The notes beneath the pieces are model-generated. The model made no database searches. It was not told where the DNA came from and saw nothing but the letters and a program-made list of their open reading frames with translations. A program made the position numbers and the translations under genes. A stretch of 64,000 nucleotides of DNA from a virus, in the IMG/VR virus record IMGVR_UViG_3300032053_000017, positions 1 to 64,000 of that record. One strand, 5' to 3'. Within the stretch, counting starts at the first letter, position 1; every line of letters begins with the position of its first letter. Positions 3,864 to 54,749 of this stretch are shown here, piece by piece.

Positions 3864-6440
3864 ATGCCACTGCCGGTGCTTAAGGACAGGGTCACGCCAG
3901 GCAAGTATGCGATAGTGCGCACTGCGCCGTCGGTGTCTGCTGCCGATTACGCCGGGCGGGCGCAGGCCTGTGGGCTTACCGGCCTGGTGTTCAAACTGAA
4001 TGACAAGGACCAACTGTTGGCAGAGTGGCTTCCGGACCCGGCCGGCGCTGACTGGCAGAAACTGCAGTATATGCTGGGGACGGCCGGCGGTCTTGATGCG
4101 TTGCTCGGCTATGGTCTGAAGGTCGGCGTCATGTTTGATGCCGGCAAGGGTGCCTACGAGGTACCGACGGCGGAGGGCTCGAGCTGGGCCAGCGTCATGC
4201 GGCTGCTCGACCCCCTTGGCATAAAGATCGACTTCTTCGCGGCTGATATCACTGTTGAGCCGCGGTGGGCGGACATTTCGAATGTGCAGCCGGACTACGC
4301 TCCCTACTATTATACCCGCGCCGCGTCAGGACGTTCACTCTCTGCGCTGATAGCCGCGTCGCGTGTCTCACAGGTGGGTCGAGTACGCCCGATCTATCTT
4401 ATCACCCCCGCCGAGCCACTGGCAGACTGGCCGGGACTTTACGGTAACCAGACACCAGGGGTCAACGGCTTCGGTGTCCTGGCGCCGGCGACTGAGGTCT
4501 TCTGCAACGCGGTACTCAACCTCGCGCACCGCGTTGACCCGGCTAACGGGACAGCGGACACATCGACAGCCTGGCTCTGGCACCAGACCTACAAAGGGAC
4601 CCAGAGCATGGTCCGGGGCGAGTTTGTCTTTGACCTCCGCACGACCACTGCTGATGCAGAGGCGCTCAAGGGCATGGTCCAGTACGTGGTGAATGGTTTT
4701 GACATCACGCTGGCGGACCTGGGTATCGTAGGTGATTGTATCTGGCACCCGACAGCGGGTCTGGTCATGTTCGACGACCTTGATGCGGTCGAGTCCAAGG
4801 GCCTCTGCGCCGCTGTCGGGGAGGCTCTGACACCGACAGACTTTTGGGACCTGGATATCTACGAGGGTGGACCGTGTCTCGAAGGTCCCTCAGGGGATCT
4901 GGTCTGGTGGGCACTTGGTCAGACCCCGGCGCTGGTCGCTGGCCAGCCGTGGGAGGCGCGTCTGGCGATCGAGAGCTGGCGGCTCGGCAGACTCCCCAAC
5001 TGGATATTTTTGTACTCTATGAAGACATGCGCAGAGGAGACGGATCTGACTCTCCCGCAGAACTACGCGAGCTGGCTCTATGTTGGAACTCTGCCGGTCT
5101 TGTTTCATGCGGGCGCGGGCTTTGCTACGCGCGTTGAGGGCGAGCTTGAGGACTACACTGATCCGGCGACGGGCTTGACGCACAAGGTCTTTCACCTGCA
5201 CGGGACGCCTACGGCGGCCGACGTTGACGCGCAAACACTGGAGCTTGATTTCTACGGTGGATTTCTGAGCTTTAACACCTGCGGGGTGTTTACACTGGTT
5301 GTCGGTTCAACGGCCGTTCCGATCCCACCTATTGGTGTGGGAAGTACCGTCGTGTCGGATATGCTGCACCCGATCGTGCCGTTTATGGGTAACCGCGGCA
5401 GTCCCTGCTTGCCGATAGCGGTCGGCTTGGCGCCAGGACCGGTCATCCCGCCGGGTCCCGGTGGCGTTGGGGACTGCGGACAGACAACTACATTTAGCTG
5501 TCCAGATGGAGATTGGACGGCGTGTAACAGTATCCTTAACATCGTTTGGGTGGCGGCGGGTAAGCCGACAGACTGGGAGGAGATGGCGTTCTATATCGCG
5601 GTATTGTTCCGTGAGTCTGGCGACATGCCGATGGGCGATACGGCAGGGGACTGCTGCCCGAACGCGGCCCTCGACTGTACCAGGTGTATCGTGTGTGCTG
5701 CGAGCAGCGATCCGACATCATGCTGCTGTTCATTCGGTCTGTTTCAGCTTAACAGGTGCGGGGGTCAGGGTGCCGACTACGGCTGTGTTGAGCTGCTTGA
5801 CCCGATAACCAACGCGGTCATCGCTATGGTAGCCCTGCTGTCTGCTTGGAGCGAGAACAAGGCAGCCGGGTATACCGGCATGGATCTGTACAAGCGCGTA
5901 GCAGCGGATAGCGGACATCCTGGCAGCAGCGCTTCGGGCGAGGCTTCGCGGCAGGCGATCGCAAGTCTCACAACGTGCATAGCGGCGAGTCCGCTGGTGT
6001 TTCCGCTGCCGACATTTGGACTGGTGTGGCCGCTGCATGGGGCGCTTAACGCCGATTGCGCATGGCACATGGCGGTCGAGACTCTTTCAGCCATCGATAT
6101 CAACTGTAGTGGTGGGGAGACCATCAAGGCGGCGCATACGGGCACCGTCACATTTGCGGGACTGGACCCGAGGAGCGACCCGGCGCAAGGCGGGGACCCG
6201 AGCATGGGCTACGGTTATACGGTCGAGATCGCTGATGCCTCGTACCCGGAGTATGTTACGAAGTACGGACATATGCAGGCCGGTCTTTTGGTAACTGCTG
6301 GCGATCATGTGACGGCTGGGGTTACAGGTCTAGGACTTTGCGACTCGACCGGGCACTCGACTGGACCGCACTTGCACTTTGAACTGCGGCATAACGGCGT
6401 GACGGTGTGTCCGTGCACATATCTGACGGGAGGATGCTGA
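3864..6440 (+). CDS. Virion-associated peptidoglycan hydrolase (lysozyme-like domain plus M23 peptidase), Cys-rich
   Basis: RESG...GLFQL...LLDP..N (SLT-like); AAHTGTV, GYG..V, KYGHM, STGHSTGPHLHFE (M23). Confidence 0.75.
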   Translation: MPLPVLKDRVTPGKYAIVRTAPSVSAADYAGRAQACGLTGLVFKLNDKDQLLAEWLPDPAGADWQKLQYMLGTAGGLDALLGYGLKVGVMFDAGKGAYEVPTAEGSSWASVMRLLDPLGIKIDFFAADITVEPRWADISNVQPDYAPYYYTRAASGRSLSALIAASRVSQVGRVRPIYLITPAEPLADWPGLYGNQTPGVNGFGVLAPATEVFCNAVLNLAHRVDPANGTADTSTAWLWHQTYKGTQSMVRGEFVFDLRTTTADAEALKGMVQYVVNGFDITLADLGIVGDCIWHPTAGLVMFDDLDAVESKGLCAAVGEALTPTDFWDLDIYEGGPCLEGPSGDLVWWALGQTPALVAGQPWEARLAIESWRLGRLPNWIFLYSMKTCAEETDLTLPQNYASWLYVGTLPVLFHAGAGFATRVEGELEDYTDPATGLTHKVFHLHGTPTAADVDAQTLELDFYGGFLSFNTCGVFTLVVGSTAVPIPPIGVGSTVVSDMLHPIVPFMGNRGSPCLPIAVGLAPGPVIPPGPGGVGDCGQTTTFSCPDGDWTACNSILNIVWVAAGKPTDWEEMAFYIAVLFRESGDMPMGDTAGDCCPNAALDCTRCIVCAASSDPTSCCCSFGLFQLNRCGGQGADYGCVELLDPITNAVIAMVALLSAWSENKAAGYTGMDLYKRVAADSGHPGSSASGEASRQAIASLTTCIAASPLVFPLPTFGLVWPLHGALNADCAWHMAVETLSAIDINCSGGETIKAAHTGTVTFAGLDPRSDPAQGGDPSMGYGYTVEIADASYPEYVTKYGHMQAGLLVTAGDHVTAGVTGLGLCDSTGHSTGPHLHFELRHNGVTVCPCTYLTGGC

Positions 6441-27909: not shown

Positions 27910-28296
27910 ATGCCAGCGTGGAGTAGGGAGGAGACGCCCAGGACGTTGACGAAGCCGCACAGGCAGCTTATGGCGCTACTGACTGGGCTGGGGTTGGAGG
28001 TCAGGTCGGAGGTCCGGGTTGGACGGTACGCACTTGATATCTTGGTGGAGGAGCTCTGGCTTGGCTTTGAGGCTGATGGGACTTCGGCGCATGCTGGTCC
28101 GCGAAAACGCAAGCGGGACGCCGCACGCGACCTATGGATCTATGATAACGCGAGGATCCCGGTGTTGCGCGTGGATGAGGAGATGCTTAGGGCTTCGGCA
28201 TCTGATGCGGCGATGGTGCTTATCGATGACTTTATCAAGCAGCATTCTTCCGATGTAGAGGAGCGAAAGGAGCAGGGGAAATGGGTAGTCGTTTAA
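27910..28296 (+). CDS. DUF559/Vsr-like endonuclease
   Basis: EVRVGRYALDI, FEADG..H, D..RD..., VLRV. Confidence 0.7.
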   Translation: MPAWSREETPRTLTKPHRQLMALLTGLGLEVRSEVRVGRYALDILVEELWLGFEADGTSAHAGPRKRKRDAARDLWIYDNARIPVLRVDEEMLRASASDAAMVLIDDFIKQHSSDVEERKEQGKWVVV

Positions 28297-28697
28297 GACA
28301 GCGACACCGTCCGTTGAAGCCAGTCAAGGTTGCTTCTGCTGAGTTCTGTCTTGCTGAGATGCTCCTCATCCAGAAGTCGATCAAGGCGACGATTGACGCG
28401 CGCCTCAAGGGGCATAAGAAGCTGTCGCCATCTTTGAAGATGGTCATGCTGGCCGACGCTATCATCAATGAGGGTTCGGAGCTTAAAGCATGGCTGCCAT
28501 GGAAACTGTGGAGGGGCGACTACGGGCGCGAGCTGACAGAGGGGGAGCGTGAAGGCGTCATCGAGGAGCTCGTTGATCTTCTGCACTTTGTCTTGGAAGG
28601 TTTCATTGACATGGGTATCGATGACCCGAAGTTGCTGACCGGGTACTATCTAGCTAAGGCGAAGATCAATAAGGAGCGTCAGCAGAATGGGTACTAG
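28281..28697 (+). CDS. All-alpha dUTPase/dCTPase (dUTPase_2 / T4 gp56-like)
   Basis: E..EL..WLPWK.W, EELVDLLHF, Y..K..IN.ERQ..GY. Confidence 0.85.
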   Translation: MGSRLRQRHRPLKPVKVASAEFCLAEMLLIQKSIKATIDARLKGHKKLSPSLKMVMLADAIINEGSELKAWLPWKLWRGDYGRELTEGEREGVIEELVDLLHFVLEGFIDMGIDDPKLLTGYYLAKAKINKERQQNGY

Positions 28698-29228: not shown

Positions 29229-30308
29229 GTGCGCAAGAAGATAAACGTAGCTATTGTCGGGGTAGGCAACTGCGCTTCGTCGCTTGTCCAGGGCGTTAAC
29301 TTCTATCGTGATGCCAAGGTTCTCCAGGAGATCCCCGGCCTCATGCATCCGGTCTTGGGTGGGTACAAGATCTCGGACATCAATTTCGTTGCGGCATTTG
29401 ACATCGACGCCAACAAGGTGGGCAAGGATCTGTCTGAGGCCATCTATGCGCCGCCCAACAACACGCTTAGGTTTGCTCAAGGCTCATCAGATGTGCCGTA
29501 CATGGACGTCCCTGTTCAGCGTGGAATGACCCACGATGGGCTGGGCAAGTACCTATCGCAGATCATCAAGAAGTCGACAGCGCCTACGGTTGATGTGGCA
29601 AAGGTGCTGCGGCAGACAAAGACCGATGTCCTCCTCAACTACCTGCCGGTGGGCAGTGAGGAGGCGACCAAGTGGTACATGGAGCAGGCGCTCGAGGCTA
29701 ATGTGGGTGTGGTCAACTGCATCCCGGTCTTCATCGCCAGTTCGCCCTACTGGGGGGCGCGGTTCGAGGAGGCAGGACTGCCCATCATCGGGGACGATAT
29801 TAAGTCTCAGGTGGGCGCGACGATCCTGCACAGGGTGCTGGCGCGTCTCTTTGAGGACCGCGGTGTCCGCATCGACCGGATGTATCAGCTTAACTTCGGC
29901 GGCAACACCGACTTCCTCAACATGCTGGAGCGCGAGCGTTTGGAGTCGAAGAAGATCTCGAAGACGCAGTCGGTTCAGTCGCAGTTGGGAACGGCGCTTC
30001 CCGCTGAGCAGATCCATGTCGGGCCTAGCGACCATATCCCGTGGTTGTTGGATCGCAAGTGGTGCCACATCCGCATAGAGGGTACGACGTTCGGGAACGT
30101 GCCGCTGAACTTGGAGCTGAAGCTGGAGGTCTGGGACTCGCCGAACTCGGCGGGTATCGTGATCGACGCGCTGCGCTGCGTTAAACTAGCGCTTGACCGT
30201 GGCATCGCCGGCCCGCTGATCGCGCCGAGCTCCTACTTCATGAAGAGTCCGCCGACACAATTCACGGACAACGAGGCCCGTGAGGAACTGGAGGAGTGGA
30301 TTGCCTAA
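29229..30308 (+). CDS. ino1: myo-Inositol-1-phosphate synthase
   Basis: [65 protein letters not shown]; full length. Confidence 0.96.
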
Positions 30309-30834
30309 GGGCGTTATTTACGCGCTGATCAATTCCGATACACTTGAGATGCGATATGTCGGCAAGACTTCCAAGACGGCTGAGGCCAGACTTCAGACGC
30401 ATCTCAGGAATGTTCGCTTACGGCGCGGGTGCAATCATCATTTGCAGGCCTGGCTTCGTTCTCTTCTAGTTCCCCCGGCGGTGGTCATTCTCGAGCGTGA
30501 TGTGCTAGATTTGAACGAGGCTGAACGTCGGTGGATTGCAGATCTTCGGGCTCAGGGCGCTCGTTTAACAAATATGACTGATGGTGGCGATGGGTGCGCC
30601 CTTACGGGTCGGCATAATTCGGCAGAGACCGTTGCTAAAATAGTGGCTAAGACGCGCGGCCGAATTGTCTCTGCTGAGGCTAGGGCGCATATTTCGGCAT
30701 CAAGACAAAACGGGCGGCGTAGATTTGGTATGGATGCGCCTTTTTATGGTCGCCGGCATTCGTCGGTAACCAAGGCTAAGATTGCTGCTGCGCTGAAGGG
30801 CCCGCTTAATCCGAATTGGAAAGGCGGTCGTTAA
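30301..30834 (+). CDS. Free-standing GIY-YIG homing endonuclease with NUMOD3 repeats
   Basis: VIYAL...YVGKT, RL..H, E..WI, LTN.T.GG; HSxxTKAKI-type repeats; lower-GC codon usage. Confidence 0.8.
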
Positions 30835-31856
30835 TGGTTGTGCGTGAGGTAAAAGGCGACCCGAGGACCCACCGCCGCGCGTTCAGGGAGTTCGTGCGGT
30901 ATGAGTTGCTCTGCGGTGGCCCTGACCCGCATATGAAGTTGGCCCAGTCGATCGCCGGGCAACTGAGCGCGGATCTCATGCAGCGGGCCTGGTTTATCGG
31001 CTGCTACATCGGGCCGTACAACGTGCCGACCGGTGAGGCTATATTCGCTGATTGGTCACACCCTGTGCGCGCGCTGCATGAGCCGTGGGATTTCGAGGAC
31101 TGGATCCGAAGCAATTGGAGCAATTTGGTGCTGCGGCGCGAGCGCAGGCCGGTGCGGTCGCCGCGCAAGTTTGCCGAGCACATGCTCGACTACGCGGACT
31201 GGCTGACGCGGCCCGGCGGCTTTGAGGCGCTGGCACGGGCAGAGAGCTTCGAGGAGAGTTTTGAGATCGTGCGGCAGGTCCGGTACAACGGCCGGTACGC
31301 TACGATGAAGCTGTATGAGACGCTTCGGCGAACATGCGGGCTGCCGAAGTACGAGTTCACGGACATCAGGCCAGCAGGCGGCTGGTCGCCGCGGCTGGCG
31401 CTCTCTTGGCTCTATCCTGACGACGCGGTTGAACTGAACGGTAACGACAGCGCGTTCAACCTCACGATGGCACAGTGGGACGCCGAGCTCTTGCGCTATG
31501 AGTTGAAAATGGGAGGGATTGACCTCGACTGGTTCAACCTTGAGGTCATGCTCTGTGACTACAAACAGGCCTACGACGGGCGGCAATACCCGGGGCGGGC
31601 GCACGACTCGGAGCTGGGGCACTTGCGAAAGGTGCAGGCGGCATTTCCAAATACGGTGTTCAGAACGTTGAACACACGTTCGCTGCTGTTTCCAAGCTGG
31701 GCCCTCGGTGAGGTGCAGGGATGGGAGGGTCGGCGTGACGAGTGTAGTGCCGTGCTGGGTGAGCACGGGTACACATGGAGTGACGCGATATACGACTACG
31801 TACGAACGCGTGAAACCGGGGACTTTGTCAATCCCGTGGTGAGGAGCGGTTCATGA
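30834..31856 (+). CDS. aGPT-Pplase2 / amino-acid:DNA transferase-like DNA hypermodification enzyme (glycosylase-like fold)
   Basis: AWF..CY...Y, L..RRERR, GRY...K..E, SPR.AL, EVMLCDYK....R.YPG..D pattern; location beside an HMUDK-like kinase and a TS homologue. Confidence 0.72.
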   Translation: MVVREVKGDPRTHRRAFREFVRYELLCGGPDPHMKLAQSIAGQLSADLMQRAWFIGCYIGPYNVPTGEAIFADWSHPVRALHEPWDFEDWIRSNWSNLVLRRERRPVRSPRKFAEHMLDYADWLTRPGGFEALARAESFEESFEIVRQVRYNGRYATMKLYETLRRTCGLPKYEFTDIRPAGGWSPRLALSWLYPDDAVELNGNDSAFNLTMAQWDAELLRYELKMGGIDLDWFNLEVMLCDYKQAYDGRQYPGRAHDSELGHLRKVQAAFPNTVFRTLNTRSLLFPSWALGEVQGWEGRRDECSAVLGEHGYTWSDAIYDYVRTRETGDFVNPVVRSGS

Positions 31857-32311
31857 AGGTAACACAGATCACAGACGGACTCTATATCAGGGGCAAGTTC
31901 TTTGACATCCAGCAGCAGGATAAGCGTGTCGCTCTGCGTAAACTGGGTATCACATATGTGGTGAACCTTGTTCGACACGAGGATTGGGACCTCTACCAAA
32001 GCGCCGAGATCATGTACGAGCACATCCCGATCTCGGACGGGCGACTGGCAACGCCTGTCGCAGATAAATTGACGGTTCTTGCGAGGCGTCTGGCCATCCA
32101 CATCAAGCACGGGGGAGGGGTGCTCGTCTTCTGTAACGCGGGACGAAACCGTTCGGGGTTGCTTGCGGCTCTGATACTGCATGAGCTCTACCCCATATCA
32201 GGTAACACGGCGCTTGGCTGGGTGCGCAGGGCACGGCCGCGGGCGGTGGCAAACGAACACTTCGCGCGGTATCTTAACAGTGTAGGGATCAATACGGAGG
32301 CGGTGCTATGA
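31853..32311 (+). CDS. CX5R (DSP/PTP-like) phosphatase
   Basis: GITYVVNL, PISDG, VFCNAGRNRSG, RRARP...N..F. Confidence 0.85.
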   Translation: MKVTQITDGLYIRGKFFDIQQQDKRVALRKLGITYVVNLVRHEDWDLYQSAEIMYEHIPISDGRLATPVADKLTVLARRLAIHIKHGGGVLVFCNAGRNRSGLLAALILHELYPISGNTALGWVRRARPRAVANEHFARYLNSVGINTEAVL

Positions 32312-32501
32312 TTAGGGATAACCCCGCGGTTCAAATTGCTAGTGGGGTAAAGCTAGAGATGGCGTATGGGCAGCATACGGTGATTCAGGCGTGTCCCTCA
32401 ATGGCCGATGTGTATCGTGCTGACCGGATAATCAACCTCGAGACGGGCGTCGTGCTGAAGGACCGTTGGGGTTCAGTGGGGTTGCCGAGGAAGTACGCGC
32501 G

Positions 32502-33065
32502 ATGATCGTCAACCTGCGCGGACCTTCAGGAAGCGGTAAGTCCTACGTGGGACACCAGCTGTTGGACACATTTGGCGGCGAGCCTATCTTTGAGGATGGC
32601 TGGAACAAGTTCTCGCCGCGACTGATAGGCTACAAGCTGCCAGACAACTTCTACCTGCTCGGCTCGTACCGAGCAAAGGGTGGAGGATTGGATACGCTCT
32701 CGCCGCACGACAGGTCGGCACTGTTGCCGCTCATTGAGCGCTATGCTGCCATGGGGCATATCTTTTTCGAGGCGCTCGTGATCTCGAGCACTGTGCCATC
32801 ATACATAGAGATGGCGCAGCGACTGAAAATGCCATTCATCTTCGCATTCCTGGACACGCCGGTGGATCTCTGCATCCAGCGGATCTATCAGCGAAACGGC
32901 GGGAAACCTATCAAGGAGGATCCTGTCAAGGGGCACCACAAGTATATGACCCGGGTGGCTCAGCGGCTCCGTGATGCGGGCATGAAGACCGTGACCATCG
33001 ACTATAAGCGCTCGTTCGAAGAGGTCGTTAACCTCTTTCGCGCCGAGGGCTGGTATCCACTGTGA
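32502..33065 (+). CDS. P-loop kinase, 5-hydroxymethyl-pyrimidine DNA kinase (5-HMUDK)-like
   Basis: IVNLRGPSGSGKS, LGSY...GGLDT, FFEAL, FLDTP...C..RI..RNG. Confidence 0.75.
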   Translation: MIVNLRGPSGSGKSYVGHQLLDTFGGEPIFEDGWNKFSPRLIGYKLPDNFYLLGSYRAKGGGLDTLSPHDRSALLPLIERYAAMGHIFFEALVISSTVPSYIEMAQRLKMPFIFAFLDTPVDLCIQRIYQRNGGKPIKEDPVKGHHKYMTRVAQRLRDAGMKTVTIDYKRSFEEVVNLFRAEGWYPL

Positions 33066-33251
33066 CCGACGCTGAGCTTATAGCCCTGGCTGCCCTTGTA
33101 TGGGTTGAGACGCAAGGGATGATCGCGTTCAATGAGGAGAGGGCGCATGAGGGGTACGCTCCGGCTTATGGTGAACTTCTTTTTGTAACAAACCCTTCAA
33201 CATTGAAACTGCGGAAGGAACTAGAGCGGCGGGGCGTGCTGAAGGAGACTG

Positions 33252-34343
33252 ATGACAGTTAAACTAACTGGCGTCGGGGTTCATATCTACTCTGGTGGCT
33301 TCACCATTGGTATGGAGCAGGCCGGCGTTGAGGTTTTGGCACAGCTCGAGGAGCTTGACGCGGGGTTTGAGACGGCGCAGTTAAACCTCGCTACACGGAT
33401 GGATCATACTCTAGCGCCGTATGAGGACTGGCCGCTTAGGACGTATCAGAATAGAGTCAACATCGTGTATGCGAACCCCCCGTGTGCGCCGTGGAGTTTG
33501 GCAGGAGGTCGGAAGGGTATGGATGATCCGCGTATCGTCTATGCCATGGATTCGCTGGATGCGGGGCTGAAACTGAATGCGGACTTTATTGTGATCGAGT
33601 CGGTATGCCGCGCATGGTCGCCTACAGGCGGTCGGCCGTTGTTTGAGCGGTTTGCGCATAAGGCCATGAGGGATGGTTATGCCGTGACCATATTCTTCAC
33701 GAACGCGGTCTTGCATGGGGCGCCACAGTTGCGGCAACGGTTTCACTTTATCGCGCACAAGTATGAGATCAGGGATCTCTTCACCATAGCGCCCCTTACG
33801 TACGGTGACGTGTCTACAGTGTGGGATACCATTGGTGACCTTGAGGACCGTCCCGATGATGAAGCGTGGGGGCACAGTCGCACTGTTCCAGATGAGCGCG
33901 AGCTAAACGTGATACGCGACCTGCAGCAGGGCGAAAGTTGGGGTGATGCTTGGCGGCGCGTGATGGCGCGGGGGTTGCCCGCGAAGCCCGCACGGTTTAT
34001 CGCGCATAGACTGATCTACGACGCGCCGTGTGGGACCATCTTGGATATCGGTGCGATGGTGCACCCGACACAGGACCGAGTGCTGACGCTACGTGAGGGC
34101 GCGCGGCTGTGCGGCTACCCCGACGACTTCCAGTTCGCGCGGGGTAAACGTGGTTTCCACAACTCGGACGTGACACAGGCTGTCCTGCCGTTTGTGGGTC
34201 GGTACCTTGGTGCGGTATTCTCTCTAGGGATGAGGCGTGGACTACGGGTCGATGGGCGTGACGGCATAGAGGTCATCGACCTGCGGTCGTTTGCCAAGCC
34301 CTTCATGCCGAAGAAGTTCATAAGCGCTGGGAGGCCGGTGTAG
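33252..34343 (+). CDS. Atypical C5-cytosine DNA methyltransferase homologue
   Basis: HIYSGGF (I), NPPCAPWS (IV), IESV (VI), PQLRQRF (VIII), RVLTLREGARLCGYPDDF (IX). Confidence 0.8.
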   Translation: MTVKLTGVGVHIYSGGFTIGMEQAGVEVLAQLEELDAGFETAQLNLATRMDHTLAPYEDWPLRTYQNRVNIVYANPPCAPWSLAGGRKGMDDPRIVYAMDSLDAGLKLNADFIVIESVCRAWSPTGGRPLFERFAHKAMRDGYAVTIFFTNAVLHGAPQLRQRFHFIAHKYEIRDLFTIAPLTYGDVSTVWDTIGDLEDRPDDEAWGHSRTVPDERELNVIRDLQQGESWGDAWRRVMARGLPAKPARFIAHRLIYDAPCGTILDIGAMVHPTQDRVLTLREGARLCGYPDDFQFARGKRGFHNSDVTQAVLPFVGRYLGAVFSLGMRRGLRVDGRDGIEVIDLRSFAKPFMPKKFISAGRPV

Positions 34344-35401
34344 TGGACTACGGACCATACATCGTACTCGAGGGTCCTGACGGCACTGGGAAGACAACCC
34401 TTGCCAACGAGATCATCAGGCGTACGGGCGCGAATTATGTCCACTGCGGGCCGCCAGACGGGCCGGCGCTCGAGTACTACCTTCGGAAGCTTCGCTCTGT
34501 CAAGGGTCCTGCGGTGGTGGATCGGCTGCACGTCGGCAGCTACTGCTATGGCATCGCCTTCAGGCACGCCCCGGACCTGACGGAGTTTGAGAACTGGCTG
34601 ATCGAGGGGTTCCTTTACGCGCATGGCGTGCAGCTTATAAACTGTGAGCTGCCGGCTGAGATGGTCGACAAGAACTTGGCGCGGGGACCCGATAACGCGG
34701 ACGCGGCGATATATGAGAATCCAGCGAAGCGTGAGCTTCTGCGGGAGCTCTATAAGGAGAGGATGCTGGCGACCGAGCTGCCGCTCGTGCACTATGACTA
34801 CACCTCCTACTGTGGTGCATTTGAGGATATCGCGAGCTACATCGGTAACGCTCTGCGCATAGATACTCGGGCGCATGAGAGCTTGACTGAGCTGGATGCG
34901 ATTGGAAATATGGTCAACCCACGGCATATCTTGATCGCTGATCGGCCGTCATGGTATGACAGCACGGAAAACAGGCTGCGTAAGCAGGGTCTACTGCCGA
35001 CATGGCGTGTTGAGTTCATGAAGCGGTTTAACCGACGATTCGGGGGACTGGTGCTTAACTCAACGTCTGGTCGGTACATGTACATGGCGCTTCAGAGCGC
35101 CCAACTCAGATTGCGCGACTTTGCGATGTTCAACTCGGTCCAGGGCGACGGGCGGCATCTGCCTGAGACAATGTGGGGGCTGCCGCTCAAGTTTTGGACA
35201 CAGGCGGGTGATATTGTGGCATTGGGGCGTAACGCAGGTAGCGAACTGGCACGTGCCAATGTGCCCTACCGGGCCGTGCCGCACCCGCAGCATGTCAGAC
35301 GCTTTCACTACAAGGATGTTATGCGCTATGGGGCGGCATTGACTGACCCGAAGCAGCCCTGGGAGTGTGAGACTAGCTACTGCAAGACGGGAGAGTGGTA
35401 G
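34343..35401 (+). CDS. dNMP (thymidylate-like) kinase fused to a C-terminal UDG-like domain
   Basis: IVLEGPDGTGKTT, DR.H.G..CYG; C-terminal SG.Y...AL, IVALGRNA, VPHPQHVRRF. Confidence 0.75.
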   Translation: MDYGPYIVLEGPDGTGKTTLANEIIRRTGANYVHCGPPDGPALEYYLRKLRSVKGPAVVDRLHVGSYCYGIAFRHAPDLTEFENWLIEGFLYAHGVQLINCELPAEMVDKNLARGPDNADAAIYENPAKRELLRELYKERMLATELPLVHYDYTSYCGAFEDIASYIGNALRIDTRAHESLTELDAIGNMVNPRHILIADRPSWYDSTENRLRKQGLLPTWRVEFMKRFNRRFGGLVLNSTSGRYMYMALQSAQLRLRDFAMFNSVQGDGRHLPETMWGLPLKFWTQAGDIVALGRNAGSELARANVPYRAVPHPQHVRRFHYKDVMRYGAALTDPKQPWECETSYCKTGEW

Positions 35402-35402
35402 G

Positions 35403-36266
35403 ATGAACCCTACTATATTCGCTGGTGAGGACGCGACAGGACTTTGGCTCAGGGCGCTTAGAGGACTGATCAACGAGGGCGAGAGGGTCAGTCCGCGTGG
35501 GATGGGGACGCTTGAGCTGCGGCCGGCTATCTTGTCATTGCGTGACCCGCGGAAGCGGTGGGTTCAGGTGCCAGAGCGTAAGCTGTCAAAGGCGTTGGGC
35601 TACATCGAGGCGTTTCTACTGTTGACTGGTATGAGTGATGCGGAGCTGCTGGTGAAGGCCGCGCCGCAGTATGCTAACTTTGTCAACCCGGAGACCAAGA
35701 CGCTTGACGGGGCGTATGGGCCGCGTGTCGGTCCGCAACTTGACTACATCCGTGAGCTACTGAGGCGTGACCCGGACACCAGGCAGGCCGTCGTCACTAT
35801 CTTTGGACCAGCTGACCATCATGAGTCGCGGGACGTGCCGTGTACGGTCAGTTTGCACTTCATGGTGCGAGATGGGGCGCTTGAGCTTATCGTCTACATG
35901 CGGTCTAACGATGTCTGGCTAGGATGGCCTTACGATGTCGTGATGTTTACGGTGTTGCATGAGGCGTTGGCTGTTGATCTGGGACTGGCGCTTGGGCAGT
36001 ACACACACGTGGCTGGGTCGCTTCACCTCTATGATAGAAACAGCGACAAGGCCGTTAGGATCGCGGCGGAGTACGGCGGAAGATGGACTGAATCTGACGT
36101 GCCAATGCCAGAGGGCGCGACGCTTGAGGAACTGCAGGGTTATGCGCGCGCGCTGCTTTCAGCGTATAGGCGTGACCTGACGGTGAAAGATGTTTTGGGC
36201 AGTTTTAGCAGACTGCCAGCATTCTTCAAGGCCGCTGCTCGTGAGATGCTGGAGAAGGAGGCATAG
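35403..36266 (+). CDS. Thymidylate synthase homologue, predicted dCMP hydroxymethylase
   Basis: SPRG, AYGPR, DPDTRQA, catalytic PCT, MRSNDVWLGWPYD (Asp at the E. coli Asn177 position), SLHLY. Confidence 0.85.
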   Translation: MNPTIFAGEDATGLWLRALRGLINEGERVSPRGMGTLELRPAILSLRDPRKRWVQVPERKLSKALGYIEAFLLLTGMSDAELLVKAAPQYANFVNPETKTLDGAYGPRVGPQLDYIRELLRRDPDTRQAVVTIFGPADHHESRDVPCTVSLHFMVRDGALELIVYMRSNDVWLGWPYDVVMFTVLHEALAVDLGLALGQYTHVAGSLHLYDRNSDKAVRIAAEYGGRWTESDVPMPEGATLEELQGYARALLSAYRRDLTVKDVLGSFSRLPAFFKAAAREMLEKEA

Positions 36267-36268
36267 CG

Positions 36269-36553
36269 ATGCCGCACATTCCAGAGCGACGACGTGACGA
36301 TATTGACTTGTCCAGGGAAGGACGCAACAGCGCTGGGGAGTGCGATGGGCCAGGTGAGCTCAACTGGGCATTGACGGAGGTTGTTATCGGCTACCTTCTG
36401 GCGAAGGGCCTGAGCTATAGAACGTGCAACGACATTGTCGGCGCGCTGGACAACGCCAAGGACGAGTTCCGCCGGCTTGTACAGCATCCATACGAGGACC
36501 GGAAGATAGTGGAGAATGGGAATGCCTATCCCAAGGAGGTCTTGTCATGCTGA
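36269..36553 (+). CDS. Conserved phage hypothetical protein (DUF6899-like)
   Basis: GELNW, Y...NDIVGALD.AK.EF.R....PYED.KI.ENG. Confidence 0.6.
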   Translation: MPHIPERRRDDIDLSREGRNSAGECDGPGELNWALTEVVIGYLLAKGLSYRTCNDIVGALDNAKDEFRRLVQHPYEDRKIVENGNAYPKEVLSC

Positions 36554-36999
36554 ACCTCTATCTAGCAGGCCCTATAACGGGCTGCACCTACAAGGGGGCG
36601 ACCAACTGGCGCGCGTCGTTTGCCGAGCGGGTTAAGGAGCTCGGGTACAACGTGTACAGCCCGATGCGGGGCAAGGAGCACCTGTCGCGGGTCAAACGGC
36701 TCAGGCCGCACGGTTATGACAACCCGACGTCGATTGACAAGGCGATCATGCGTCGTGATTCATTTGATGTCAGGCGCGCTGACGTCGTATTGGCTAACTT
36801 GCATGGCGCCGAGATCGTGAGTATCGGGACGATGTTCGAGCTCGCCTGGGGATACATCCTCGGGAAGTTCGTTCTCGTTGTCATGGATGATACGGACAAG
36901 ATACACGACCACGCGTTCGTTGAGCAGTCGGCCAGCACAATCGTTGAGTCGCTCGAGGACGCTGAGCGGGTGCTTGAGGTCTTGGCGGGTAGCCTCTAA
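36547..36999 (+). CDS. Nucleoside 2-deoxyribosyltransferase / NMP N-glycosidase family protein
   Basis: YLAGPI, SPMR, RD..DVRRAD, SIGTMFELAW. Confidence 0.85.
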   Translation: MLNLYLAGPITGCTYKGATNWRASFAERVKELGYNVYSPMRGKEHLSRVKRLRPHGYDNPTSIDKAIMRRDSFDVRRADVVLANLHGAEIVSIGTMFELAWGYILGKFVLVVMDDTDKIHDHAFVEQSASTIVESLEDAERVLEVLAGSL

Positions 37000-37859
37000 T
37001 GCCGACGGGAGGCGGAGGTATCGGACGGTTGCTGCGGCAACTCGGGTCTGATGATTGGCTTGGGCGAATCATGGACTCGTACTTCAACAAGTCGTCATCT
37101 GAGAGGTGGAACCCGCCCGACTATACGGTTCATCCTAGCGGGTGCGGGAACGCTTGCGCTTTGTCTATTGAACTGAGTATGCTGGGGCACCGTGGCGCGG
37201 TAAAGGGTAAGAATCGACGTCGCATGGACAACGGCATCGCTGCCCATGAGCGGTGGACTCGGTATTTCCGCGAGATGGGGATCTTGGTCGCCGCGGAGTG
37301 GAACCTCAAGATGGTGGACCCGGTTACAAGCGGTAAACTTGATGACATCATTCAGAATCCGGGTACAGGCGACCTGTATATGGTCGAGGTCAAGACCACG
37401 AATACCCGAAAGTTTGGGGAGCTTTCAAAGCCGATTGCAGACCACGTCGCGAATGGGGTGATGCTTTACAGGTGGCATCGTGAGTGGTACCTGCAGTTTG
37501 TATTCTATCTGACGCACGCCGATTACAACGGCCGGCGATTTGAGGGTGGACTGTTCGTTGTAGAGAACACCGACAATCAGGACTATATGATCATCTATGC
37601 CAAGCCTTCGGCAGAACACATTGCCGAGGCAGAACGGAATGCGGTGGCCGCGCAGCGGTCGGTGATGCATGGCGAGATGATATCGCGTCCGTTCCAGCAC
37701 GGCGATCATGCCTGCAGGTGGTGCGACCACGTCGCACTCTGCGGGTTGTTAGATGAGGGAGATGAGAACGCATGGAGCCTAGCAGCCAGCCAGTTCAAGA
37801 GGTTGAGCTTAACGCTGAAGACGAAACCCCCAGCGGGTGGACCTGGCGTAACGCCGTAG
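36999..37859 (+). CDS. Cas4-like PD-(D/E)XK exonuclease
   Basis: HPS.C..C, G...H, GKLD, EVKT, Q...Y, CRWC...C. Confidence 0.8.
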   Translation: MPTGGGGIGRLLRQLGSDDWLGRIMDSYFNKSSSERWNPPDYTVHPSGCGNACALSIELSMLGHRGAVKGKNRRRMDNGIAAHERWTRYFREMGILVAAEWNLKMVDPVTSGKLDDIIQNPGTGDLYMVEVKTTNTRKFGELSKPIADHVANGVMLYRWHREWYLQFVFYLTHADYNGRRFEGGLFVVENTDNQDYMIIYAKPSAEHIAEAERNAVAAQRSVMHGEMISRPFQHGDHACRWCDHVALCGLLDEGDENAWSLAASQFKRLSLTLKTKPPAGGPGVTP

Positions 37860-53797: not shown

Positions 53798-54244
53798 GTG
53801 GCTGGAAGGGACCGTCCTTTACGCGATATGGAGGGCGAGATGCCAGCACTAAGTTTGAGCAAGTGTTCACAGCTGCTTGAGGCAGCCAGTTTCGAGCCCC
53901 TGCCTGGACGTACGTCGGGCGAGTCGGTAACTGCCCTCTGTATGGCGGCCAGCATGCATAAGTCGGCGGTCGAGAACGGATTGACTGCTGAGGTTCTGCT
54001 TGAGCTACGGACCAGTCGTTTTCCCATGCTGACCAAGACGGTCGAGGGCGGCTTCAAGCACATGATCTCAGTTGACAGCGGTGCCGTCTATGCTGAGCTT
54101 TGGAGCAAGGGCGACAACTGGTACGCGGTCACGGATGCCGCGATCAACCTAGTCAAGGGGATCCGCAAGGGCATGGATGCGCGAGATGCGGTGCCTCTGT
54201 TTCTGAAGGCCGTGTTCCCTCGAAAGCGTTGCTGCGGTGGATGA
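53798..54244 (+). CDS. Hypothetical protein
   Basis: ORF; start codon uncertain. Confidence 0.5.
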   Translation: MAGRDRPLRDMEGEMPALSLSKCSQLLEAASFEPLPGRTSGESVTALCMAASMHKSAVENGLTAEVLLELRTSRFPMLTKTVEGGFKHMISVDSGAVYAELWSKGDNWYAVTDAAINLVKGIRKGMDARDAVPLFLKAVFPRKRCCGG

Positions 54245-54749
54245 GCCGGTAGTACTACTTAGCAGTGGGGTTGGCGTCTACGGTATAACGCAGGGCCTCT
54301 ATCAGTCGAGCGAGCCCATGGTGGACGCAGACTGGGACAAACTGTGGGAGCTGGCAGACGTGATCGTTGGGCTTAACGCGGCGGTAGTCAGCGAGGTGCC
54401 GACCAACAAGATGTTGGTCAAGTGGCCTATCGAGGATGGTCCGCTGCCGAACCTTGAGGTACTGCGCGGGCTGGTGGAGCTGCTGGCCGAGCTGCTAGAG
54501 AACGAGAAGCGTATCGTGGTATTCTGCGGCGCGGGTGCAAATAGGTCGGGACTGATCACAGCATTGGTCGTCCGCCAGCTAACAGGTGAGACTGGGCGCA
54601 GGGCCGCAGATCATGTGCGGACACGTCGACCGGGAGCGCTTATAAGCGGGACATTCAATATGTACCTCAACGCCTTGCCCGACCTGGAGGAAGAACTGGT
54701 AGGGGCAGGGCCTGAGACGCCCCAAGAGGGCGAGATCGAGGGGATCTAA
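54237..54749 (+). CDS. CX5R (DSP/PTP-like) phosphatase, second copy
   Basis: WPIEDG, VFCGAGANRSG, VRTRRP.A. Confidence 0.85.
   Translation: MDEPVVLLSSGVGVYGITQGLYQSSEPMVDADWDKLWELADVIVGLNAAVVSEVPTNKMLVKWPIEDGPLPNLEVLRGLVELLAELLENEKRIVVFCGAGANRSGLITALVVRQLTGETGRRAADHVRTRRPGALISGTFNMYLNALPDLEEELVGAGPETPQEGEIEGI

Follow-up and report, generated by a model that had tools for sequence, protein, structure and literature searches.

The thymidylate synthase (TS) homologue encoded at positions 35403-36266 on the + strand is, judging from its diagnostic residues, very probably a dCMP 5-hydroxymethylase of the T4 gp42/MilA functional type. Its gene lies close to genes for an HMUDK-family DNA kinase and an ADDT-family transferase. 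To our knowledge, all characterised HMUDK/aGPT-Pplase pathways make hypermodified thymines. The best-supported reading of the locus, towards which we lean with some reserve, is that in this phage the HMUDK/ADDT chemistry has been redirected to 5-hydroxymethylcytosine (5hmC) in DNA.

The window, by which we mean the whole 64-kb stretch of DNA analysed here, is the first part of a 105,972-bp IMG/VR virus record (IMGVR_UViG_3300032053_000017) that was estimated by CheckV to be 83% complete. It has 58.7% GC, and almost all of its genes are found on the + strand. Among all sequencing runs containing the sequence, it was present in sediment-metagenome contigs only and no RNA runs were listed, and a near-identity DNA search gave no match to cultured phages. 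In run X4, a relative was observed that has no coverage at 30436-34839. As no contig bridges this gap, it is no evidence of a missing cassette.

Residues and class of the TS homologue

The gene encodes a product of 287 aa, the translation of which contains YMRSNDVWLGWPYD as well as YMRSNDVWLGWPYDVVMF. The protein matched PF00303 with an E-value of 7e-20 (71.6 bits, cut-off 24.3), and with this score above the gathering threshold and its catalytic residues present it belongs to the thymidylate synthase superfamily. Using HMMER, residues 112-216 were aligned with residues 111-215 of E. coli ThyA. In an alignment of the subfamily, composed of the TS homologue and its 120 best database relatives, R32, E69, Y105, R127, C147, R167, S168, D170, H208 and Y210 are invariant; these ten residues match ThyA R21, E58, Y94, R126′, C146, R166, S167, D169, H207 and Y209, respectively. 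When solved structures were searched with the protein, MilA was the best match (E 6e-31), followed at a distance by ordinary thymidylate synthases (E about 1e-15).

The initial annotation had placed an Asp at the position of ThyA N177. This was borne out by the HMMER alignment, in which D178 occupies the N177 column. MilA carries an Asp in the same column, and so do all 121 subfamily sequences. The exchange N177D leads to dCMP as the substrate (PMC13326640). Moreover, columns 177 and 147 were those that best split the TS homologues of cytosine-modified metavirome contigs from those of unmodified ones, with Asp177 belonging to the cytosine-modified contigs (PMC8670742).

The neighbouring diagnostic columns of ThyA, L143, C146 and H147, are occupied by D144, C147 and T148, and Asp is found in the L143 column in 117 of the 121 sequences. 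With a bulky, hydrophobic side chain at L143, water is shut out and a methyl product results, whereas Asp or Glu at this position goes together with hydroxymethylation (PMC13326640). The residues R127 and S168, the latter within the motif R167-S168-N169-D170, correspond to ThyA R126′ and S167. Since deoxy-specific enzymes harbour Arg126′/Ser167, and the ribo-preferring MilA and BcmA have Lys/Ala instead (PMC5175136), Arg127 and Ser168 point to a deoxyribonucleotide, not a ribonucleotide, as the substrate. Finally, D170 aligns with ThyA D169, and the Asp is kept in the TS homologue and in all 120 relatives. As D169N is the mark of flavin-dependent 5-hydroxy-dCMP synthases (PMC13326640), the conserved Asp170 argues against an enzyme of that kind. 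The protein therefore combines the residues expected for cytosine (D178), for hydroxymethylation (D144) and for deoxyribose (R127/S168) in a dCMP hydroxymethylase.

To compare the protein with phage enzymes, the TS homologues of T4, SPO1, SP10, M6, ViI and phiW-14 were taken from the genomes and aligned together. The proven dUMP hydroxymethylases of SPO1, SP10, ViI, M6 and phiW-14 carry D143, C146, N147 and N177 in all five cases, and a one-residue loop insertion after RSxD is present in all of them except SP10. T4 gp42, on the other hand, has D143, C146, T147 and D177 and no insertion, which is exactly the pattern of the TS homologue. In a maximum-likelihood tree, a check that had been proposed together with the initial annotation, the N177 enzymes grouped without exception in one clade (98.7/100), with the window protein placed among the diverse D177 sequences. 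With four further diagnostic positions and the comparison with the proven enzymes in agreement, the cytosine specificity that had been proposed from the single Asp is strongly supported.

Other enzyme classes were tried and rejected. A dUMP hydroxymethylase of the SPO1 gp29 type was rejected on D178, T148 and the missing insertion, as opposed to the N/N pattern; a 5-hydroxy-dCMP synthase of the RB69 gp48 type on the retained and invariant D170; and a CMP hydroxymethylase of the MilA/BcmA type on R127/S168 in place of Lys/Ala.

Neighbouring genes and the proposed pathway

The HMUDK, the ADDT, the gp56-like dNTPase and the dNMP-kinase-like gene that had been named as neighbours were all found near the TS gene, and all genes described here are encoded on the + strand. 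The gp56-like all-alpha NTP pyrophosphatase of the dUTPase_2 family (28281-28697; PF08761, phrog_173) has the T4 dCTPase/dUTPase gp56 as its best T4 match (44% identity over 72 aa, E 2e-8). It is followed by INO1 (29229-30308; TIGR03450, E 1.5e-160; PF01658), encoding a myo-inositol-3-phosphate synthase for which the nearest cellular homologues, with 72-78% identity, are found in Chloroflexota MAGs. A GIY-YIG/NUMOD3 homing endonuclease identified with Pfam (30280-30834) is located between INO1 and the gene for the aGPT-Pplase2/ADDT homologue (30816-31856; PF18724, 36.7 bits, cut-off 26.2). In the latter, E243 and C247 form an E-x-x-x-C motif that aligns with ETVLC of M6 gp51 and with Glu243/Cys247 of PaMx11, and the protein is assigned to the family by its profile score and these residues. 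The roles of Cys247 and Glu243 have been described for PaMx11 gp46 (PMC11472151).

Downstream of the ADDT gene, a dual-specificity Cys-based phosphatase is encoded (31853-32311; PF00782, E 8e-15) with the CX5R motif FCNAGRNRS. Next follow the HMUDK-family 5-hydroxymethyl-pyrimidine DNA kinase (32466-33065; PF18748, 37.6 bits, cut-off 27), placed in this family by its score and a Walker A motif (GPSGSGKS), and a DNA cytosine-C5 methyltransferase homologue (33252-34343; PF00145, E 6e-25), of which the catalytic motifs PC, ESV, QxRxR and RE..GYPDDF are intact compared to M.HaeIII. Searches of PDB sequences with the HMUDK and with the ADDT gave no usable structure.

The gene directly upstream of the TS gene (34343-35401; phrog_761) encodes a dNMP/thymidylate-kinase-like P-loop kinase with a C-terminal family-4-UDG-like domain, and a single base separates its stop codon from the start codon of the TS gene. 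Using an AF2 model of this protein (pLDDT 79), Foldseek matched the N-terminal half to YorR and thymidylate kinases and the C-terminal half to the T. maritima UDG 1l9g and UdgX 6l6s (E about 3e-4). Downstream of the TS gene we found a DUF6899 ORF (36269-36553; PF21840), a protein of the nucleoside 2-deoxyribosyltransferase/Rcl/MilB superfamily (about 36424-36999, start uncertain; PF05014, E 3e-13) and a Cas4-like nuclease (36999-37859). The superfamily protein has a conserved GT.FEL motif, and its gene is shared with L001, the nearest relative. No glucosyltransferase was identified in the annotated part of the window.

From the sequence signatures, gene content and co-occurrence computed here, we infer the enzymatic steps, the modified base and the nucleophile as follows. 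After hydroxymethylation, 5hm-dCMP would be phosphorylated by the kinase-UDG protein, while the gp56-like pyrophosphatase would deplete the competing canonical nucleotide. Hydroxymethylase, kinase and pyrophosphatase would in this way supply 5hm-dCTP to the phage polymerase, and 5hmC would enter the DNA at replication. After replication, the HMUDK-family kinase would phosphorylate 5hmC in DNA at its hydroxymethyl group. The ADDT would then attack C6 via Cys247, the phosphate would be expelled and a nucleophile would join the exocyclic methylene. This nucleophile is probably myo-inositol or an inositol phosphate provided by the adjacent INO1, and the CX5R phosphatase may remove a phosphate before or after the transfer.

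The attack of the Cys at C6, the loss of phosphate and the addition of a nucleophile to the exocyclic methylene follow the ADDT mechanism, and C5-methyltransferases and dCMP hydroxymethylase likewise use a Cys to attack C6 on cytosine (PMC8989533; PMC11472151). A precedent for a hydroxyl nucleophile is given by ViI gp247 (PMC8989533). With regard to inositol, we observed that INO1 is full-length (TIGR03450 aligned over 1-355 of 355) and that in two relatives, L004 and L115, a HAD phosphatase fills the gap between INO1 and the ADDT gene. That the window's phage and the complete genome G001, described below, make an undescribed cytosine modification, in which 5hmC is phosphorylated and subsequently turned into inositol-O-methyl-cytosine via the ADDT, is a tentative proposal that we regard as possible but less likely than not. 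The searched literature described cytosine hypermodifications only via glycosyl or carbamoyl transfer or via routes of the C5-methyltransferase family (TET oxidation, carboxymethylation). It held nothing relevant on inositol-linked phage DNA modification or on a 5hmC DNA kinase, which is no proof of absence.

The extent of the replacement can be considered as well. A DNA C5-methyltransferase requires unmodified cytosine. Because the cassette harbours such an enzyme in an apparently active form, a complete replacement of cytosine fits poorly.

Base specificity of the kinase and transferase

A search of IMG/VR for relatives of the TS homologue yielded 80 loci with Asp in the N177 column (D-type loci). 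In the nearest relative, L001, of which the TS is 68% identical to that of the window, the genes for the gp56-like enzyme, the kinase, TS, DUF6899, the deoxyribosyltransferase-like protein and the Cas4-like nuclease are contiguous, and the block from INO1 to the C5-methyltransferase is absent. As L001 has the contiguous module without the block, we consider INO1, ADDT, CX5R phosphatase, HMUDK and C5-methyltransferase to be an insertion in the window's phage. Among the 80 D-type loci, the cassette was found in only two genomes, the window's phage and G001, a 92-kb genome that is 100% complete according to CheckV and is the contig of loci L004 and L087. There, the gene order is C5-methyltransferase, INO1, HAD phosphatase, ADDT, phosphatase, HMUDK, kinase and TS. 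All cassette genes of G001 are intact, and its D-type TS is only 40% identical to that of the window.

Searching for the ADDT gave 18 loci, 16 from viral IMG/VR records and 2 from metagenomes. In 18 of 18, the ADDT gene is directly followed by that for the CX5R phosphatase; HMUDK is present in most of them and INO1 in seven. A TS homologue lies within reach in 12 of the loci, 11 times of the N177/N147 type and only in L087 with D177. Hence, a uracil-type hydroxymethylase is the usual companion of the ADDT-phosphatase-HMUDK cassette, with the window and L087 as the exceptions. Locus L115 has no TS within its 17-kb sequence, but contains a gp56-like gene and a C5-methyltransferase. A locus search with an alignment of two HMUDK sequences returned the L004 contig again and nothing else.

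The accompanying genes were also counted, using the window's own proteins as probes and without correction for shared ancestry: the gp56-like enzyme was present in 29 of 80 D-type loci versus 0 of 11 N-type loci, the dNMP-kinase-like gene in 59 of 80 versus 0 of 11, a C5-methyltransferase near the TS in 13 of the 80 and an N-glycosidase-like (MilB-superfamily) gene beside it in one. In addition, an apparently active C5-methyltransferase is encoded with each of the three cassettes whose kinase belongs to the window's HMUDK clade, and with none of the other cassettes.

This clade became visible in the HMUDK tree, where the kinases of the window, L087 and L115 group together (99.8/99) against all kinases adjacent to N-type TS genes. 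A separate D-type kinase clade is the pattern expected if the kinase reads the base and its base specificity has changed, with two or three independent examples of the D-type-associated cassette at hand. The ADDT tree gave a different picture: the window ADDT is sister (99.3/97; 45-47% identity) to the ADDT of L083, where the TS is of the N-type, and those of L087 and L115 pair elsewhere. In the TS tree, the window protein and that of L087 belong to separate subclades of the D-type, and relatives that lack the cassette lie between the two. The simplest reading of these trees is that one specific lineage of kinases stays with the D-type phages and that transferases are exchanged more freely. 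As a specificity marker we also tried the residue following the catalytic Cys of the ADDT, which is Asp or Asn in the window, L114, L004 and L115 and Glu elsewhere. This marker was dropped, because M6 gp51 has a Lys at this position and the essential Glu is found at −4.

The TS homologue could make 5hm-dCMP and the cassette could nevertheless act on 5-hydroxymethyluracil (5hmU), as in all characterised systems. We judge this to be unlikely. The 5hmU would have to come from a host deaminase or an unrecognised phage deaminase acting on 5hm-dC nucleotides, or from dUMP if the hydroxymethylase also accepted it as a side substrate. One characterised HMUDK was tested on 5hmC DNA and did not phosphorylate it (PMC6457204); therefore, a change in kinase specificity must be assumed if the window's kinase uses 5hmC. 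The N177 TS beside 11 of 12 related cassettes and the sister position of the window ADDT to that of an N-type locus are also in line with 5hmU. Moreover, the D-type phage AXL3, in which a dCMP deaminase gene lies directly beside the TS gene, shows that a route via a D-type TS and a deaminase exists in nature.

On the other side, no cytidine or dCMP deaminase domain, no TET/JBP and no ThyX was found above threshold in the 106-kb record, and none of these was found in G001 either, although it is complete. The TS homologue is the single PF00303 match in the whole 106-kb record, and G001 likewise has a single TS homologue, which is of the D-type. In the 17% of the genome missing from the record, a deaminase or another TS could be encoded, but the complete G001 argues against this. 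The initial annotation had also pointed to the lack of a dCMP deaminase. The observation itself holds for the entire record, but the argument carries little weight: no dCMP deaminase is present in a complete genome whose TS is of the N-type either, so that its absence does not discriminate between the readings, and the D-type phage AXL3 does possess one. The HMUDKs associated with D-type phages group in a clade of their own, which would be unexpected with an unchanged substrate. The earlier proposal that kinase and transferase act on 5hmC thus stands in part. The sole D-type TS, the lack of deaminase and TET/JBP in both genomes and the kinase clade speak for it, whereas the ADDT tree and the C5-methyltransferase do not fit well.

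The two modules could also be unlinked, with a genome that contains 5hmC, entirely or in part, and an INO1-ADDT-phosphatase-HMUDK cassette that is a recent passenger lacking any substrate or acts on another molecule. The cassette is indeed an insertion that the closest relative lacks, harbours a homing endonuclease and is rare in D-type phages (2 of 80 loci). However, the same combination with intact cassette genes occurs in the distant, complete genome G001. Since the catalytic motifs of kinase, transferase and phosphatase are also intact, and the D-type phages have a kinase clade of their own, we think it improbable that the modules have nothing to do with each other.

For phage XP12, a dCMP methyltransferase has reportedly been found. 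If the TS homologue were such an enzyme, the DNA would contain 5-methylcytosine, and the C5-methyltransferase would fill in the residual cytosines. With Asp at N177 as the only change, a thymidylate synthase becomes a dCMP methylase, according to the work of Liu and Santi (1992) as cited in PMC13326640, and a catalytically intact C5-methyltransferase lies in the neighbourhood, such genes being found near the TS in 13 of the 80 D-type loci. The L143 column, however, is occupied by Asp and not by a bulky hydrophobic residue, and the H147 column by Thr, as in the hydroxymethylases T4 gp42 and MilA; furthermore, 5-methylcytosine offers no hydroxyl to the co-located kinase. A methyltransferase is consequently very unlikely. 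We regard as extremely improbable a MilA-like CMP hydroxymethylase working with a MilB-superfamily N-glycosidase towards free 5-hydroxymethylcytosine, or a flavin-dependent 5-hydroxy-dCMP synthase, because, despite MilA being the best solved-structure match and a MilB-superfamily gene lying two ORFs downstream, the Lys133′/Ala176 ribo pair is replaced by the deoxy pattern Arg127/Ser168, the N-glycosidase-like gene accompanies only one of 80 related TS loci, and the D169N marker is absent with D170 invariant.

If the redirection of the cassette to 5hmC holds true, a cytosine-directed phospho-activation would represent a new branch of phage DNA chemistry. It would also suggest inositol as a novel type of DNA adduct. 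If the proposed inositol transfer takes place as well, the product would be the first phospho-activated, non-glycosyl cytosine hypermodification and the first cyclitol-bearing DNA base. The kinase would be a candidate 5hmC-specific DNA kinase and a useful reagent, since the commercial enzyme ignores 5hmC. As the cassette lies beside an N177 TS in most phages and beside a D177 TS in two, and the kinases form a clade, the hypothesis is directly testable with named genes.

Comparison with known systems

Like the window protein, RB69 gp48 and DLP3 gp80 combine N177D with an acidic residue at L143; they differ by D169N, where the window protein and its 120 relatives keep the Asp. MilA from the mildiomycin pathway (PDB 5b6d, 5jnh), aligned over residues 15-222, shares Asp in the N177 column, Asp in the L143 column and Thr in the H147 column. 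In contrast to Arg127/Ser168 of the window protein, its Lys133′/Ala176 favours ribo-CMP, and it is encoded in an antibiotic gene cluster and not in a phage replication module.

With T4 gp42, the window protein shares the Asp at N177 and L143, the Thr at H147, D169, the catalytic Cys, the Arg/Ser deoxy pattern and the lack of a loop insertion. The similarity between the two is nevertheless weak (a small search gave E 3e-8), and gp42 forms a long separate branch. The resemblance extends to gene content: T4 has gp42, the dNMP kinase gp1 and the dCTPase gp56, and the window has a gp56 homologue and a nucleotide kinase adjacent to the TS. The kinase of the window differs in being fused to a UDG-like domain, and in place of a glucosyltransferase, which was not found in the annotated part, the window harbours a phospho-activation cassette.

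Among cultured phages, Stenotrophomonas phage AXL3 (gp28/gp29) has one of the closest TS homologues, with about 36% identity and D177/T147/D143, and its gene is immediately preceded by that for a 328-aa 'thymidylate kinase'. AXL3 differs by the dCMP deaminase beside its TS, and no HMUDK, ADDT, INO1 or phosphatase is annotated in the 12.7-kb region.

The thymidine hypermodification systems of M6, ViI, PaMx11, phiW-14 and SP10 share the HMUDK and ADDT families with the window, as well as the location of kinase and transferase beside a TS homologue. The five proven TS homologues of such systems carry N177/N147, as opposed to D178/T148 in the window, and the window's HMUDK and ADDT are at most 33% and 30% identical, respectively, to their cultured-phage counterparts. 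Finally, the PLP, radical-SAM and flavin tailoring enzymes of the known systems do not accompany the window's ADDT subfamily, where a CX5R phosphatase invariably comes next and INO1 is often present.

ADDT–phosphatase pairing and insertions in the cassette

The amino-acid:DNA transferase gene (ADDT) of the cassette is directly followed by a gene for a CX5R dual-specificity phosphatase, an arrangement found in 18 of 18 loci of this ADDT subfamily (window, 30816-32311; viral loci L083-L098; metagenome loci L114 and L115). In the papers on thymidine hypermodification that were consulted, we found no description of this conserved pair. A second, divergent dual-specificity-phosphatase-like ORF (54237-54749; phrog_10650, E 1e-5) lies distant from the cassette.

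Between INO1 and ADDT, the window harbours a GIY-YIG/NUMOD3 homing endonuclease gene (30280-30834), whereas two relatives encode a HAD-family phosphatase at this place. In the cassette of L115, a gene for a FkbM/class-I SAM methyltransferase (L115, 9336-10001) is inserted between those of the phosphatase and the hydroxymethyl-pyrimidine DNA kinase (HMUDK), a hint that the adduct may be modified further in this relative.

The C5-methyltransferase accompanying the HMUDK clade

All three cassettes with an HMUDK of the window's clade also encode a DNA C5-cytosine methyltransferase whose catalytic motifs are intact (window, 33252-34343; L004, a locus with a D-type TS, 4144-5298; L115, 11345-12601). 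Its position within the cassette differs among the three, and the L115 enzyme is only distantly related. Among the remaining cassettes, the methyltransferase was present in none (0/13). The phage carrying this C5-methyltransferase is predicted to contain 5hmC.

Possible origin and abundance of INO1

The INO1 product (29229-30308) shares 72-78% identity with inositol-3-phosphate synthases from MAGs of Chloroflexota (Dehalococcoidia/Chloroflexia), and this similarity suggests that a member of the Chloroflexota is the host of the phage or the donor of the gene. Homologues at 36-43% identity were found in Stenotrophomonas Moby-like phages, Caulobacter phage Cr30 and Ralstonia phage RP13. In four sediment runs, the summed contig depth across INO1 (29335-30435) was 10-35 times that of its flanks, which means that these samples are rich in cellular INO1 genes of at least 90% identity.

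Genes flanking the TS gene

Upstream of the TS gene, a nucleotide kinase is fused to a family-4-UDG-like domain (34343-35401). The consensus motifs are LLVGDxRN, SGEYL and PHPQ; the window protein has ILIADRPS and VPHPQ. The fusion is kept in 59 of the 80 D-type TS loci, and none was detected adjoining N-type TS genes.

Downstream (36269-36999), a DUF6899 ORF precedes the gene of a nucleoside 2-deoxyribosyltransferase/Rcl/MilB-superfamily protein, in which a GT.FEL motif is present. Both genes at this position are common only to the window and its closest relative, the cassette-free L001. The pairing of TS with a MilB-superfamily gene in the window resembles MilA/MilB, but is not general across the TS subfamily.
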